From positions 1 through 64,000 of IMG/VR virus record IMGVR_UViG_3300017589_000047: a DNA stretch of 64,000 bases; one strand, given 5' to 3'. Positions 2,591 through 27,435 of the stretch are shown piece by piece. Source of the stretch: a virus. Positions within the stretch are counted from its first letter, which is position 1. Each line of letters starts with the position of its first letter. A program made the position numbers and the translations under genes. The notes below the pieces were generated by a model. The model worked only from the letters and a program-made list of their open reading frames with translations, did no database searches and had not been told where the DNA came from.

Positions 2591-3385
2591 TTATCCAATC
2601 TTTCTATCAGCAATCCCATATTTAATAGCCATTTCTTTAACCATTGCAACATATCCCTCAATCAACCTTTTATCATCTGCTATAACATCAATCTTAGTTA
2701 AAGCTTCACGTTTCGATTTGCAAACACCTTCGTCTGCCATTCTTTGTCGCTTGTTAGTTAATCTTCTTTTTAAATCTGTTTTCATTCGACTATCTAGTAA
2801 GTCATAACTTTCATTTCTCAATCGGCGATAAAATTGGCTTGTACCACCAAGGAAAATTGCTATTTTGTTAAGTAGGTTTTGTGTATCTGATCTCCAAGCC
2901 GTACTGTCAAGTGCTACAACTTCTCTTATGCTGTCAATTCGAGTATTTGTATCAGCAACGGATTTTTCTATTTCTTGTTGTTTTAATTGTGTTGATGCTA
3001 CCGTGTCAAATATCTGTTTGAACATCTGAAGTTCTGGACTAAGTTTTGAAATATCAAGCTTGTACTTTTCTTCAACGCTTATTAAATACTTTCTATATTC
3101 TTTGCCTTTTTCATTTCTTTCAAGCATTGCCATTTCTTTGGCTATTGGAAGCTTTAGGATGTATTCTATTGTTCTTCCACCGTTTTCACAATTTTGTGAA
3201 AAACTTGAAAAATCAACCTTTCCAATGGCATCAACCTCGTTTAATCTTTGCTTTACCCAATCGGTAAATTGTCTTTTGTTTTCTAATCCCTCATGAAGTT
3301 CCCTGGCATTGACAACTTTTTCGCCTTTGTCTGTTTCGTAAACTTTTATTAAACCGTTGCTTTCTAAAATTTTTAGGTTATTCAT
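2591..3385 (-). CDS. Phage antirepressor (AntA/Bro-N-like N-terminus)
   Basis: N-terminus LIKVYETDKGEKVVNARELHEGLENKRQFTDWVKQRL resembles the AntA/Ant motif. 264 aa with a coiled-coil C-terminal half. Confidence 0.7.
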   Translation of the reverse strand: MNNLKILESNGLIKVYETDKGEKVVNARELHEGLENKRQFTDWVKQRLNEVDAIGKVDFSSFSQNCENGGRTIEYILKLPIAKEMAMLERNEKGKEYRKYLISVEEKYKLDISKLSPELQMFKQIFDTVASTQLKQQEIEKSVADTNTRIDSIREVVALDSTAWRSDTQNLLNKIAIFLGGTSQFYRRLRNESYDLLDSRMKTDLKRRLTNKRQRMADEGVCKSKREALTKIDVIADDKRLIEGYVAMVKEMAIKYGIADRKIG

Positions 3386-16157: not shown

Positions 16158-16238
16158 TGATAAAACCTCCGATTTTGTAACTGGGCTTGCGACCAGTTCG
16201 CGCATTGCCAGGTATTTATTCCCCGTCACTCTGCTTGT

Positions 16239-16649
16239 TTAATTTGCCATTTGATGCATTAACTCTTCGATGTCTTTTATTATTGCGCTGTTTAAATCAT
16301 TTGTGGTTAATACACTTACTATATATTGACCGTCGTCGTCAGTGTATCTTTCTGCAAGTCCTCGAAGTTTGTTCTGCATTCCTTCTCTGTCAAAGTCTAA
16401 ACCTTGTTCAAAAGCTAAAGAAGGGATTTCACGAATTACGATTGACCTTTTTCCGTTGTAATCATCATAGTAGATGTTTTTATTGTTTGGGTCGTCTGCT
16501 TCATTTATGATTATGTGTAGTGTATGCAAGCAGTTCCATCTTGGAGTTATGAATAAATCCTTTTCAAATTCAACATCCATTTTATCTTGTATTATTTGAG
16601 CTAACCAGCTTGTGTCTTGAAGTTTTCTTACACTGTTTGATGTTTTCAT
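16239..16649 (-). CDS. Hypothetical protein
   Basis: 136-aa ORF whose start overlaps the upstream stop (TAATG). Confidence 0.55.
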   Translation of the reverse strand: MKTSNSVRKLQDTSWLAQIIQDKMDVEFEKDLFITPRWNCLHTLHIIINEADDPNNKNIYYDDYNGKRSIVIREIPSLAFEQGLDFDREGMQNKLRGLAERYTDDDGQYIVSVLTTNDLNSAIIKDIEELMHQMAN

Positions 16650-20304: not shown

Positions 20305-20379
20305 ATGGGAATAGTACAAAGGTTAGTGCAAGGGTCTTATAAGCCTCAAATATAGGTTCAATTCCTATTTCCCATACCA
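20305..20379 (+). tRNA. tRNA with anticodon UAU (Ile, AUA decoder), CCA encoded
   Basis: Folded by hand. Acceptor ATGGGAA/TTCCCAT has 7 WC pairs. U8 is present. D arm GTAC-AAAGGTTA-GTGC. Anticodon arm AGGGT-CTTATAA-GCCTC is weak (1 mismatch, 2 G.U). Variable loop AAAT. T arm ATAGG-TTCAATT-CCTAT. Discriminator A, then CCA. Confidence 0.7.
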
Positions 20380-21485: not shown

Positions 21486-21977
21486 ATGAAAGAGGTTTAC
21501 AAAGATTTATACGTTGGAAATCAACAAGATTATGAAAACAAGTGTTTTGATGATAGTTTCTCATTCTTGTTAGCCGCTAAAGAGCCATTTCACAGGCAAG
21601 CACTTAATTATAGTGGAAGAGCGTGTCCAAAAGATAATCCAGAGTATTTATGGGCTTACAGAGACAGAGGTAGTAAATTAATCCTTAATATAGTTGATGC
21701 AAGTTCTTCTTTATTCTTCAACAAAGACATGATTGATGAAGCACTTGATTTTATTGAAGAAGAGTTATTCAAGGGTAAAAATGTGGGAATTTTTTGCAAC
21801 AAAGGCGAAAGCCGTTCAGCTTCCTTAGCACTTCTTTATTTGATTAAACATGGAATTATAAAAGGTGAAACTTTAGAAGATTGTGAAGTTGAATTTTTAA
21901 GAGTTTATCCCGAATACAATCCAGGTAGCGGAATAAGGGAATTTGTTAAGGAACATTTTAAGGAGTATAAAAAATAA
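21486..21977 (+). CDS. Dual-specificity / Cys-based protein phosphatase-like protein
   Basis: The CX5R(S/T) P-loop is readable as IFCNKGESRSAS. 163 aa, the size of a minimal DSP fold. Confidence 0.6.
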   Translation: MKEVYKDLYVGNQQDYENKCFDDSFSFLLAAKEPFHRQALNYSGRACPKDNPEYLWAYRDRGSKLILNIVDASSSLFFNKDMIDEALDFIEEELFKGKNVGIFCNKGESRSASLALLYLIKHGIIKGETLEDCEVEFLRVYPEYNPGSGIREFVKEHFKEYKK

Positions 21978-21991
21978 ATATTATACATATC

Positions 21992-22168
21992 AGAATCATA
22001 GGTTTAGGTCGTTGCCTATCCGTGCCCGTGTGTTAGATAGGTCTAGGTCAACTTTTACAACTCGACTGATGAGGCTGAACGTAGCCGAAAAACAAATTGT
22101 TTATCGAGAATTCTCCACGTTGACTACGATGAGAATCCAGACGGGCAACTACCTAAGCTTATGATTTT
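21992..22168 (+). ncRNA. Helix-closed structured RNA domain containing a hammerhead ribozyme
   Basis: 21992-22016 pairs with 22144-22168: 25 positions, 1 mismatch, 3 G.U. An internal hairpin TATC/GATA lies at 22017-22039, and the hammerhead arm spans 22041-22130. Confidence 0.7.
22041..22130 (+). ncRNA. Hammerhead self-cleaving ribozyme, stem-I-open (type I) topology
   Basis: CTCGA | CTGATGA | GGCT-GAACGT-AGCC | GAAA | (A)AACA-AAT-TGTTT | A(H17, 22103) | TCGAG. Distal stem I is GGTCAAC/GTTGACT. All invariant core positions are present. Confidence 0.8.
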
Positions 22169-22175
22169 ATAATTT

Positions 22176-22199
22176 AAGCACTCCTAGAAGTGCTTTTTT
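22176..22199 (+). terminator. Intrinsic terminator after the ribozyme domain
   Basis: AAGCACT-CCTAGA-AGTGCTT followed by TTTT. Confidence 0.7.
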
Positions 22200-22289
22200 A
22201 ATGCAAATATTAGGTTGATGTCTTATGACATAGGGGTATAACACTATATTTTGGGGTGGGCGGTGTGTTATTAAAAGTAGGTGGTAATT

Positions 22290-23864
22290 ATGCCTCGCAA
22301 GGGCGGTTCTATAAGCATTATACAACAAAAGAATGAAAAGTTAATACAACATTCAACTAGCGACAAGATGGCTATTTGTGGTGAATGCGGAAAGCCATTT
22401 GCTCAAATATGGAGGCCTGAGTACGAAGCATATACATCATTTCGAACTTGCGGTATTTGCAGAATGAACAATGCAAGAGGCGGCATAAATGTTGCTGCTG
22501 AATATAGTCCTCATTGGGGACAGCAATTAGTACATGATAGCGAAGCAAGATTTAAAATAATAGATGCAGGCATTCGTTGGGGAAAAGACCGTTGCTCAAT
22601 TATGGAAGGTATAAAATACTTCATAGATTGTTTAAATGAGGAACGTGGCCCCGATATGGTTCCGCATGCGTTATGGTGGATAATCGCACCATTAGATAAA
22701 ATTGCAAATCAGAACTGGCGTGAATTACAAGCTAATCTACCAAGCGAATTAGTCGTAGACGTATCTAAAACCACAAAGACAGTACAAACAATAAATGGTG
22801 GAATTATAGAAGTCCATTCAGCCTATGACCCAGAAAGCTTAGTTGCAGTTGGGCTTGATTTAGTTACTATAACAGAGGCAGCAAGAATAGCTGACATGGA
22901 AGAAGTATGGGCTAATATAGAGGGTCGTTTAAATTCTCCTGGTCGTGGATTAGGTGGTAAGGGCGGTATGGCGATTGTCAATTCTTCCCCATTTGGTACG
23001 AATTACTTTTATAAAATGTGGAAATGGGGACAAAAAGATACTAATGATTCTGACCCCGACTTTGAAAGTTGGAAATTTGCTACTTGGGACAATCCTTATA
23101 TGGCTGTCAGAGGTAATCAAATAACTAAAAACGGTCGTACGTACAAAGAAAATCTTGAAAAAAGAATGTCAAGAAACAGGTATAAACAAGACTATTTAGC
23201 TGAATTTCTATCTACAGTCAATCAAGTATTTCCCAATTATGAAAAAGTAATAAAGAAAACACCATCTGAATTAAAAACAGAAGAAGAAATAAATGAGTTT
23301 TGGAAAAAATGGGAAGAACCAGAACCTTTTGAAACTTACACTATAGGTTATGACCCTGCATCTAAAGGCGATGGTAAACCTTGCGTTATACGTAACAGTA
23401 ACGGTAAAGTTGTAAAAATTGATACTATGAATTCTTTAGGATGGGATGCTCAATGGGATAGGGTAGCATCTTACTCAAGGATATATAATGGCGCTCATTG
23501 CAATTTTGGACAAACAGGTGTTGGAGAAACGATCGAATCGCAACTTACTAAAAGAGGTGTTTCAAATACACCAATACCAGAGCAAGGCAGAAACAAAGAA
23601 ATACTTGTAGAAGATTTTTCCTTAGTAGTTGAGCAACAATGGTGTCAAATACCTTGGTCTCAAGAGGTAGAAAATCAATTAAAGGATTATACAATGATAA
23701 TGAGGTCGGGGCAATCTACACAATACAAAAACGGAACAAGTGATGAATATGATGATATTGTCAGTGCGTTGTACTTTTGTTTTTCAGACTTTCAATCCCC
23801 CGCCTTGATGGTGCCGTATGTTGGTTATTTTGGCGGAGTTAAAAATAAAACTTCTGTAAGATAG
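22290..23864 (+). CDS. terL: Terminase large subunit with an N-terminal zinc ribbon
   Basis: ATG 22290 follows AGGTGG. CGECGKPF...CGICRMN, then an ATPase-like KIIDAGIRWGKDRCS and a nuclease-half acidic motif. Size and position (before the portal) fit. Confidence 0.75.
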   Translation: MPRKGGSISIIQQKNEKLIQHSTSDKMAICGECGKPFAQIWRPEYEAYTSFRTCGICRMNNARGGINVAAEYSPHWGQQLVHDSEARFKIIDAGIRWGKDRCSIMEGIKYFIDCLNEERGPDMVPHALWWIIAPLDKIANQNWRELQANLPSELVVDVSKTTKTVQTINGGIIEVHSAYDPESLVAVGLDLVTITEAARIADMEEVWANIEGRLNSPGRGLGGKGGMAIVNSSPFGTNYFYKMWKWGQKDTNDSDPDFESWKFATWDNPYMAVRGNQITKNGRTYKENLEKRMSRNRYKQDYLAEFLSTVNQVFPNYEKVIKKTPSELKTEEEINEFWKKWEEPEPFETYTIGYDPASKGDGKPCVIRNSNGKVVKIDTMNSLGWDAQWDRVASYSRIYNGAHCNFGQTGVGETIESQLTKRGVSNTPIPEQGRNKEILVEDFSLVVEQQWCQIPWSQEVENQLKDYTMIMRSGQSTQYKNGTSDEYDDIVSALYFCFSDFQSPALMVPYVGYFGGVKNKTSVR

Positions 23865-26085: not shown

Positions 26086-27435
26086 ATGAGTAAATTTGGA
26101 GTGCCAACTACTGAACAGTTGGCAAAAATAAATAAACTTGCTAAGAGAACTTTATCAGAAGATGAAGTTTTTGCTTTTTCTGGAAAATCTGCCGGAGATA
26201 TGCTAATTCCTAATAGGTATACAAGAATCAGCAAAGAATTATTACAAGTCTTTGCTGATGATGCTAAAAAGGGCGTTTCGTTTATGCTTAATCACAATTG
26301 GGGTAGCTTTGGAGTACAAGGCATACCTTATGGCAAGGTTTTTGATGGAAGGTTAGATCCTAGTATAGAAGCTGACGAAACCGTTGGATTGTATCTTGAT
26401 AAATTTATTGTTAGAGATAGTGAAGTTGTTGACGGAATATCTGCTGATTCTTTAATTAAAAAAATTGAAACTGGAATATTATCAGATACATCAATAAGTT
26501 TTAGTACTGATACGATGGTTTGTTCTATTTGTGGAATGAATTATTTTGGCGGTAAGTGTTCTCACTATAGAGGTTGGAAATATGAAATGGCAGACGGTTC
26601 AACTAAAACTTGCACAGTAACTGCAATGCCTCCTAGTTTGATTATTCCATATAACAACAATGCTCTTTATGAGGAATCAATTGTTTGGGATGGTGCTTAT
26701 CCTGGTGCTGTAGTAACACAATCAAAAAGTGGAGACATAATAGAATTGCCAACTGGTAATTTTGCTGTCGTTGGCGACAAAGAAGAGTTACCCGAAAATA
26801 CATTGTTTTTAGGCAAATATCATAATGGTAACCTTGTAACAATGGTTAAGAAATCAGAGCCTAAGAAAATTCACAACTTAGGTGGAATTGAAGAAGGAAA
26901 TAAGAAGGGAGTTGGAAAACTTATGAATGAAAAATTACAAAAAATGCTTGAAGCCTTTGGAGTAACATATAAAGAGGGTGAAACAAAAATTGACGAAACA
27001 TTAAACCAATTAGCTGAAAAATGGGACGCAACTGTTGAAACAATAAAAGCTTCTGTTGAACCATTAAAGCCATTGCAAACTGGAGAAAGTATTATAAATA
27101 CCAATGAGTATTTAGCAATACCTGTGACTGAAATAACTGAAAAATTAGGCGCTGAAACTAACACTGACAATATACTTGACCTTGCCAAAGAAGGACAAGA
27201 GTATCGTAAACAGTTAGTTGATGACACTATGGCAATGGGTGTTCGTGCTATGGGTAATGACTTCCCAAAAGAAACATATGAAGCTACATTTGCTAATATG
27301 GGAACAAAGGCTATTAAGGACATAATGAAAACTTTTGAGACACAGGCACAAAGCATTCCTACCGGTAGACAAACTAGCCTTAACAATTTGGGTGATAAAA
27401 AGTTTTCAATACCAGATGAGGCGTTTAGAGTTTAA
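26086..27435 (+). CDS. Head maturation/scaffolding-like protein with an internal zinc ribbon
   Basis: 449 aa. CSICGMNYFGGKCSHY, then a long helical/acidic C-terminal half. It lies between the portal and capsid genes. Confidence 0.4.
   Translation: MSKFGVPTTEQLAKINKLAKRTLSEDEVFAFSGKSAGDMLIPNRYTRISKELLQVFADDAKKGVSFMLNHNWGSFGVQGIPYGKVFDGRLDPSIEADETVGLYLDKFIVRDSEVVDGISADSLIKKIETGILSDTSISFSTDTMVCSICGMNYFGGKCSHYRGWKYEMADGSTKTCTVTAMPPSLIIPYNNNALYEESIVWDGAYPGAVVTQSKSGDIIELPTGNFAVVGDKEELPENTLFLGKYHNGNLVTMVKKSEPKKIHNLGGIEEGNKKGVGKLMNEKLQKMLEAFGVTYKEGETKIDETLNQLAEKWDATVETIKASVEPLKPLQTGESIINTNEYLAIPVTEITEKLGAETNTDNILDLAKEGQEYRKQLVDDTMAMGVRAMGNDFPKETYEATFANMGTKAIKDIMKTFETQAQSIPTGRQTSLNNLGDKKFSIPDEAFRV

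Follow-up and report, generated by a model that had tools for sequence, protein, structure and literature searches.

What does the virus encode between its phosphatase gene and terL, where a long imperfect inverted repeat encloses a sequence resembling a self-cleaving RNA? The window, by which we mean the whole stretch of 64,000 nucleotides analysed here (positions 1 to 64,000 of the IMG/VR virus record IMGVR_UViG_3300017589_000047), had been described in an initial annotation as carrying a complete hammerhead ribozyme at this place. The reading that we favour, and consider fairly probable, is that an accessory RNA of the 3´ UTR forms a rod which has a real, though atypical, type I hammerhead at its tip. 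The RNA would be cut between 22103 and 22104, and the rod would keep the products together.

The module comprises 177 nucleotides (21992-22168, thus about 180), with the ribozyme located at the tip of a long hairpin. Upstream on the + strand lies a dual-specificity phosphatase gene (21486-21977; PF00782, E=4e-8; 192 homologues), with which the upstream operon ends. The intrinsic terminator of this operon, expected behind the element from the initial annotation, was found on the + strand at 22176-22201, with the hairpin stem at 22176-22195 followed by a T-run. It is followed by terL (22290-23864, +; phrog_5909, terminase large subunit, E=7e-9), the start of which is probably the ATG at 22290 and not the GTG at 22281 given in the ORF list, as judged from the relatives, in which an ATGCC start is conserved. 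A tRNA-Ile gene with the anticodon TAT is located at 20305-20379 (+), within the same block of + strand genes and 1.7 kb before the element.

An open reading frame, 21943-22164, runs across most of the element, and if it encoded a real protein of 73 amino acids the RNA features would be incidental. The frame is indeed open, but it has a TTG start within the 3´ end of the phosphatase gene, and searches of 5.8 billion clustered proteins and of 1.84 billion cluster representatives gave no homologue; the only match was an unrelated tandem-repeat protein. In addition, the same frame contains a stop in the one homologous element that we found, on the contig L026. We regard a protein-coding function as improbable in the extreme and agree with the earlier judgement that the ORF is spurious.

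Direct reading of the + strand at 22061-22108 gives every conserved base of the hammerhead core and three helices in type I order. The string begins with the 5´ strand of stem I, CUCGA (22061-22065), and the core segment C3-U4-G5-A6-U7-G8-A9 (CUGAUGA, 22066-22072). Stem II, GGCU/AGCC (22073-76 / 22083-86) with the loop GAACGU, is closed by a G10.1-C11.1 pair and is also present in the centroid fold; since a fifth pair, G.U 22077/22082, is possible, its length is 4-5 bp. The core bases G12-A13-A14 (GAA, 22087-22089) are followed by the stem III hairpin AAACA-AAU-UGUUU (22090-22102, arms 22090-94 and 22098-22102), closed by A15.1-U16.1, which corresponds to A22090-U22102. A17 and N1.1 occupy 22103-22104, and the 3´ strand of stem I, UCGAG, is found at 22104-22108. 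The 5´ strand of stem I and stems II and III were also returned by the descriptor search described below. Helices I, II and III are 5, 4-5 and 5 bp long; II and III are capped and I is open, which is the type I arrangement. Of the features of the class, the window has the C3-A9 core, G12 A13 A14, the A15.1-U16.1 pair, an H17 other than G and the helix order. The motif lies on the transcribed strand of an intergenic region, with the phosphatase stop codon on one side and the terminator on the other. From the hammerhead numbering, the scissile bond is predicted between 22103 and 22104, with A22103 as H17. On re-reading, the core, stems I-III, H17 and the complementary segments GGTCAAC/GTTGACT all lie where the initial annotation had placed them. 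Several traits are atypical, namely the UUA triplet, the A-U pair at 15.2-16.2 (usually C-G), the A at H17 (usually C) and the A-U-rich stem III. In terms of NUH-triplet kinetics, a UUA triplet and an A-U-rich stem III are suboptimal.

Could such a motif be present by chance? The type I descriptor (CUGANGA, a stem II hairpin, GAA, a stem III hairpin, H and stem I) matched 22061-22108 and no other site on both strands of the window. When the sequence was shuffled 2000 times with a first-order Markov model, the chance expectation was 0.0155 matches per window with stems of at least 4/3/3 bp, and not one of the 2000 shuffles matched at the observed stem lengths (at least 5/4/5). A stricter descriptor that required A15.1 and U16.1 gave no type I match in 1.02 Mb of fetched loci, related and unrelated. 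A complete core with three correctly placed helices is very unlikely to occur by chance in an element of 177 nucleotides. The type II and III descriptors yielded nothing credible in the window. Their sole match, of type II (26181-26263, +) and considered as a second hammerhead flanking a cassette, has minimal stems of 3/2/3 bp and was rejected as a chance match.

The initial annotation had proposed the Rfam hammerhead models as a check, and at the gathering score this check failed. With Rfam 15 and gathering thresholds, a tRNA and a twister-P5 were the only matches reported in the whole window, and no hammerhead was among them. The models of the hammerhead clan (Hammerhead_1, _3, _II, HH9 and HH10) gave no match with E<=10 in slices of 401 and 71 nucleotides. 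The only hammerhead model that aligned was RAGATH-1-hammerhead (RF03152), with 13.7-14.5 bits compared to a threshold of 56.3, and its alignment puts the core in the correct place. The candidate shares with this family the type I order, a 5´ segment and an A/U-rich linker before stem I, and CUGAUGAG...CGAAA. It differs in stem II, which has 4-5 bp here and 1 bp there, and in having GAAAA...UUA instead of the usual GAAAC...GUC; this replacement, together with the stem geometry, accounts for the low score, and membership in RAGATH-1 was rejected. Consensus-perfect hammerheads can fall far under the Rfam thresholds. Although it satisfies the consensus, the candidate is atypical and falls outside every curated Rfam family.

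The helix that closes the module is formed by a 5´ arm (21992-22016, +) and a 3´ arm (22144-22168, +), which flank 127 bp. Recomputing its 25 positions gave 21 Watson-Crick pairs, 3 G.U pairs and 1 mismatch, the same counts as in the initial annotation. Its pair probabilities are mostly >0.95, with 0.67-0.98 for the distal five pairs and 0 at the mismatch position, and a 221-nucleotide region around it folds with z = -4.2. The minimum free energy (MFE) of 21992-22168 is -57.2 kcal/mol. With the three hammerhead stems forced and the core unpaired it is -56.5, thus 0.7 above the MFE. In this constrained fold the path leads from stem I through an 8/10-nucleotide internal loop into GGUCAAC/GUUGACU, then into the pairing 22023-32/22138-47 and finally into the closing helix. 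The arm TGCCCGTGTG (22023-22032, +; inverted repeat I15), which pairs with 22138-22147, is a possible inner helix arm that is present in this hammerhead-compatible rod fold, and its 3´ partner is invariant in L026.

The segment GGTCAAC (22046-22052, +), complementary to GTTGACT at 22119-22125, is a candidate for a distal extension of stem I; the helix forms in the hammerhead-constrained fold and has an ensemble probability of 0.28. It competes with a local hairpin, AUUCUC...GAGAAU (22110-22136, +, arms 22110-15 / 22131-36; I17), which has a probability of about 0.7. Of the stem I extension proposed earlier, the complementarity stands, but it is the rival hairpin that holds a compensatory change in L026. 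In the unconstrained ensemble, stem I has a probability of 0.18 and an inactive extension of stem III, 22086-88 / 22104-06, about 0.75. The active fold is thus predicted to be accessible but not to dominate. Two candidate tertiary contacts can be named: either the 8/10-nucleotide internal loop is involved, or the AACGU of loop II (22078-82) pairs with ACGUU (22117-21) in the loop of the local hairpin. The changes of L026 in the latter pairing are mixed, since one compensates, one gives a wobble pair and one is disruptive, and a match of 5 bp alone is not significant. A pseudoknot between stems I and II is used by about 40% of natural hammerheads (PMC3088659).

The comparison with L026 spans the 3´ half of the element, since this contig begins at the equivalent of position 22078, inside loop II. 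Over the 3´ 95 nucleotides the two elements are 81% identical, with 14 substitutions in 91 aligned element positions. G12, A13, A14, A15.1, U16.1 and A17 are identical in both. The stem III pair A22092-U22100 is replaced by G-C and the pair U22114-A22132 of the hairpin 22110-36 by C-G, both compensatory; in a simulation in which the 14 substitutions were placed at random, at least two compensatory pairs had P = 0.0076. The closing helix has three changes in its 3´ arm, and two of them are U<->C exchanges facing a G in the 5´ arm of the window. If the unseen 5´ arm of L026 retains those G's, the pairing would be kept as + strand RNA alone. Furthermore, the inactive pairing 22086-88 / 22104-06 is made weaker by the substitutions that L026 has at 22086 and 22104. 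Two 3´ strands whose partners are in the missing 5´ half differ as well, with AGCC in stem II changed to AACU and UCGAG in stem I to GCGAG; position 11.1 is a U in L026, which would require A10.1 instead of the usual G-C. Taken together, the two sequences indicate that the module is structurally conserved at the RNA level.

The element might instead be a structured non-catalytic RNA, whose hammerhead-like core has no activity or has decayed to a relic. As such it might stabilise the 3´ UTR, be processed by RNase III or function as a small regulatory RNA sharing the operon terminator; processing is conceivable because the 25-bp duplex would suit RNase III as a substrate. That the structure is real and conserved agrees with this explanation, and the best-conserved stretch, 22121-22150 with one change in 30 nucleotides compared to L026, is located outside the hammerhead. 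The failure of the Rfam hammerhead models, the non-hammerhead pairings favoured in the predicted ensemble, and the closing helix and its adjacency to the terminator, both retained in the two lineages, point in the same direction. It does not explain well why a complete core with three placed helices, so rare in shuffled sequence, should be present, nor why stem III covaries and all visible core bases are identical in L026. In addition, no complement to 22121-22150 that could serve as an antisense target was found elsewhere in the window. We therefore regard a non-catalytic RNA as possible but rather unlikely, and prefer the atypical hammerhead.

How widely is the element distributed? Among 27 IMG/VR loci with a related TerL it was found in L026 alone, and it was absent from 44 phosphatase loci and from 13 contig sets obtained by exact-protein look-ups. 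Neither the element nor the 6 kb around it had a DNA match among GenBank phages. Exact and degenerate pattern scans of IMG/VR returned the L026 contig and chance matches and nothing else, and a 20-base conserved pattern searched in JGI metagenomes and GTDB genomes returned GC-rich chance matches (L032-L034). For one of them, L032, an apparent second shared motif, GTCTAGGTC, was rejected, as it is part of a hairpin unrelated to the element and there are just as many matches as expected by chance. ARAGORN detected no tRNA, tmRNA or tRNA-like identity at the element.

A further contig, L118 (GCA_012841565.1, contig end 2215-2227), ends 13 nucleotides past the phosphatase stop codon with ...AATATTAT, the same as the left flank in the window. 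It comes from an Epulopiscium MAG, as does the NCBI copy of L026. L118 and L026 are therefore probably neighbouring contigs of an assembly that broke inside the element. Possibly, the break was caused by the long inverted repeat of the element.

About 20 relatives were checked at the corresponding slot between the phosphatase gene and terL, and all of them are without the element; small ORFs, tRNAs or an HNH gene are present instead. The relatives with a TerL 74-80% identical to that of the window do not contain the element, whereas L026, with a TerL of 57% identity, does. An element identity of 81% compared to a TerL identity of 57%, together with its absence from the closer relatives, shows that the module is shared horizontally. 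The comparison thus indicates that the module is an exchangeable accessory unit inserted into the 3´ UTR of the phosphatase gene.

The slot between the phosphatase gene and the terminator or terL is an insertion hot spot across the relatives, with tRNA genes, small membrane-like ORFs and an HNH/NUMOD4 gene. tRNAs are located in the slot in L035 (908-981), L163 (about 3265-3340) and L164 (about 3270-3360), small ORFs in L008, L009 and L014, and a gene resembling HNH/NUMOD4 homing endonucleases in L036 (2793-3293); a further insert is present in L019 (3798-3868). In three relatives of the L026 lineage, a conserved non-coding stretch of about 90 nucleotides (…AATCTTTTGCTAACAGGTTAAGATAAGTAAAGGCTTTACCTATTGAGCCGGATAATCAATGGG…) precedes the tRNA on its 5´ side (L035 about 815-905, L163 about 3168-3262, L164 about 3177-3270). 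An Rfam scan of the L035 copy gave no match.

Repeats at both ends and a patchy distribution might suggest that the element acts at the DNA level, as a miniature inverted-repeat mobile element or as a recombination or packaging site, with the 25-bp terminal repeats functioning as DNA. The imperfect 25-bp inverted repeats around 127 bp, the location in an insertion hot spot and the proximity of terL would be compatible with such a function. Of the traits of a miniature inverted-repeat transposable element it has the repeats, but the window contains one copy, a single other instance was found across the collections searched, and no target-site duplication is seen on reading the flanks; this candidate was rejected. 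A DNA function would also leave unexplained that, of the four positions in the closing helix without a Watson-Crick pair, three are G.T, and this on the + strand only, that the compensatory changes in the internal helices are of the RNA type and that the descriptor match is confined to the transcribed strand. We consider a DNA-level element very improbable and retain the hammerhead-bearing RNA.

The initial annotation had suggested that cleavage of the transcript might uncouple terL from the upstream genes. Such a function is not needed for the junction, where the terminator and a promoter-like terL leader already separate the operons. In relatives that do not contain the element the terminator is conserved, with compensatory changes, and the leader is conserved as well. 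As terminator and leader are kept where the element is absent, separation of the operons does not need the ribozyme. The element abuts the terminator in both lineages. It is an accessory 3´ UTR insertion and does not belong to what is conserved at the late-operon junction.

The terL leader itself (22200-22289, +) is also found in L008, L009, L013, L014, L036, L037, L038, L047, L116 and L005. It consists of TTGAYG, a covarying hairpin (AUGUC/GACAU, CGC/GCG, CUGUC/GACAG), TATAAC or TTAAAT, and an invariant UUUUGGGGYGGGC that is flanked by a second, apparently covarying pair of arms (UAUAACAC/GUGUUAU, AAAUACC/GGUAUUU or AAAGC/GCUUU). RNAalifold recovered part of this structure from a MAFFT alignment. 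It may represent a late promoter whose operator is an inverted repeat, or else a structured 5´ leader of the mRNA.

A second self-cleaving RNA may be encoded 6 kb from the element. The twister-P5 model (RF02684) matched the window at 16181-16235 on the - strand with 38.3 bits, compared to a gathering score of 37.6. The match lies exactly within a gap of about 80 nucleotides, which separates the stop of ORF 16239-16649 (-) from the ribosome binding site and start codon (ATG, 16156) of the ORF that follows on this strand. This match is probably a real second self-cleaving ribozyme of the phage. Hammerhead and twister ribozymes share common gene neighbourhoods in bacteria and have a persistent link to phages (PMC6765202, PMC3088659, PMC6155905). 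The hammerhead reading of the initial annotation is thus supported from several sides, by the motif statistics, the constrained fold close to the MFE, the half-core retained in L026 and the twister in the same genome.

From this evidence we infer catalysis, the cleavage site and the retention of the products. In the nascent transcript, stems II and III would form first and stem I thereafter. The 2´-OH of A22103 would then attack the phosphodiester between 22103 and 22104. The upstream mRNA would be left with a 2´,3´-cyclic phosphate end, and a 5´-OH fragment of about 97 nucleotides (22104 to about 22200), ending in the terminator hairpin, would be released. About 40 bp of the interrupted rod would still join the two products, so they would probably stay associated as a nicked duplex, and this association would also favour re-ligation. 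The most likely role of such a cleavage would be the control of 3´-end processing or stability of the upstream mRNA, or the production of a small RNA derived from the 3´ UTR.

It might also be that the element is an autonomous, horizontally moving RNA module, located in this phage group in the slot where relatives have tRNAs, in which cleavage within a rod of about 40 bp that retains the products would yield a stable nicked double-stranded RNA or a terminator-bearing 5´-OH small RNA, and in which the nearly invariant stretch 22121-22150 would be the functional part. We consider this unlikely, but if it were true, 22121-22150 might have a regulatory function, divert the defence of the host as a decoy, or undergo reversible cleavage and ligation. 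The hammerhead would then be the maturation device of a new phage small RNA and not an mRNA cutter.

How does the element compare with known hammerheads? With the genomic hammerheads of bacteria and phages (types I, II and III; Perreault et al. 2011, PMC3088659; review PMC6155905) it shares the invariant core, the three-helix junction and the type I topology, as well as the intergenic location in a phage genome, the patchy accessory distribution and the co-occurrence with twister. Unlike them, it scores under every Rfam hammerhead threshold, has the UUA triplet and the A-U pair at 15.2-16.2, and continues from stem I into an interrupted rod of roughly 40-50 bp with a closing helix of 25 positions; it is also a single ribozyme directly upstream of a terminator and not one of a pair flanking a gene. 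The mammalian Clec2 discontinuous hammerhead (PMC6155905) is likewise located in a 3´ UTR and has a very long helix I, but it is of type III and eukaryotic, contains an insertion of 150-1500 nucleotides and has no sequence relationship to the element. The Schistosoma Sm-alpha and newt hammerheads (PMC6155905) are of type I, too, with about 5 bp of stem I before an internal loop, and in all three this loop could contact loop II. They differ in being eukaryotic satellite repeats with known loop-bulge contacts, whereas the contact proposed here is a candidate.

Hammerheads are known by the thousand in bacteria and phages. The element is probably a new example of a ribozyme class already known as common in phages and not a new kind, and by itself it leaves current knowledge unchanged. 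What it offers is a clean context, with a single 3´ UTR ribozyme directly before a conserved terminator, in a slot that in sister phages is occupied by tRNAs or small genes. It may thus be a tractable case for learning how a phage benefits from self-cleavage, for instance through the stability of an mRNA 3´ end or the production of a small RNA.
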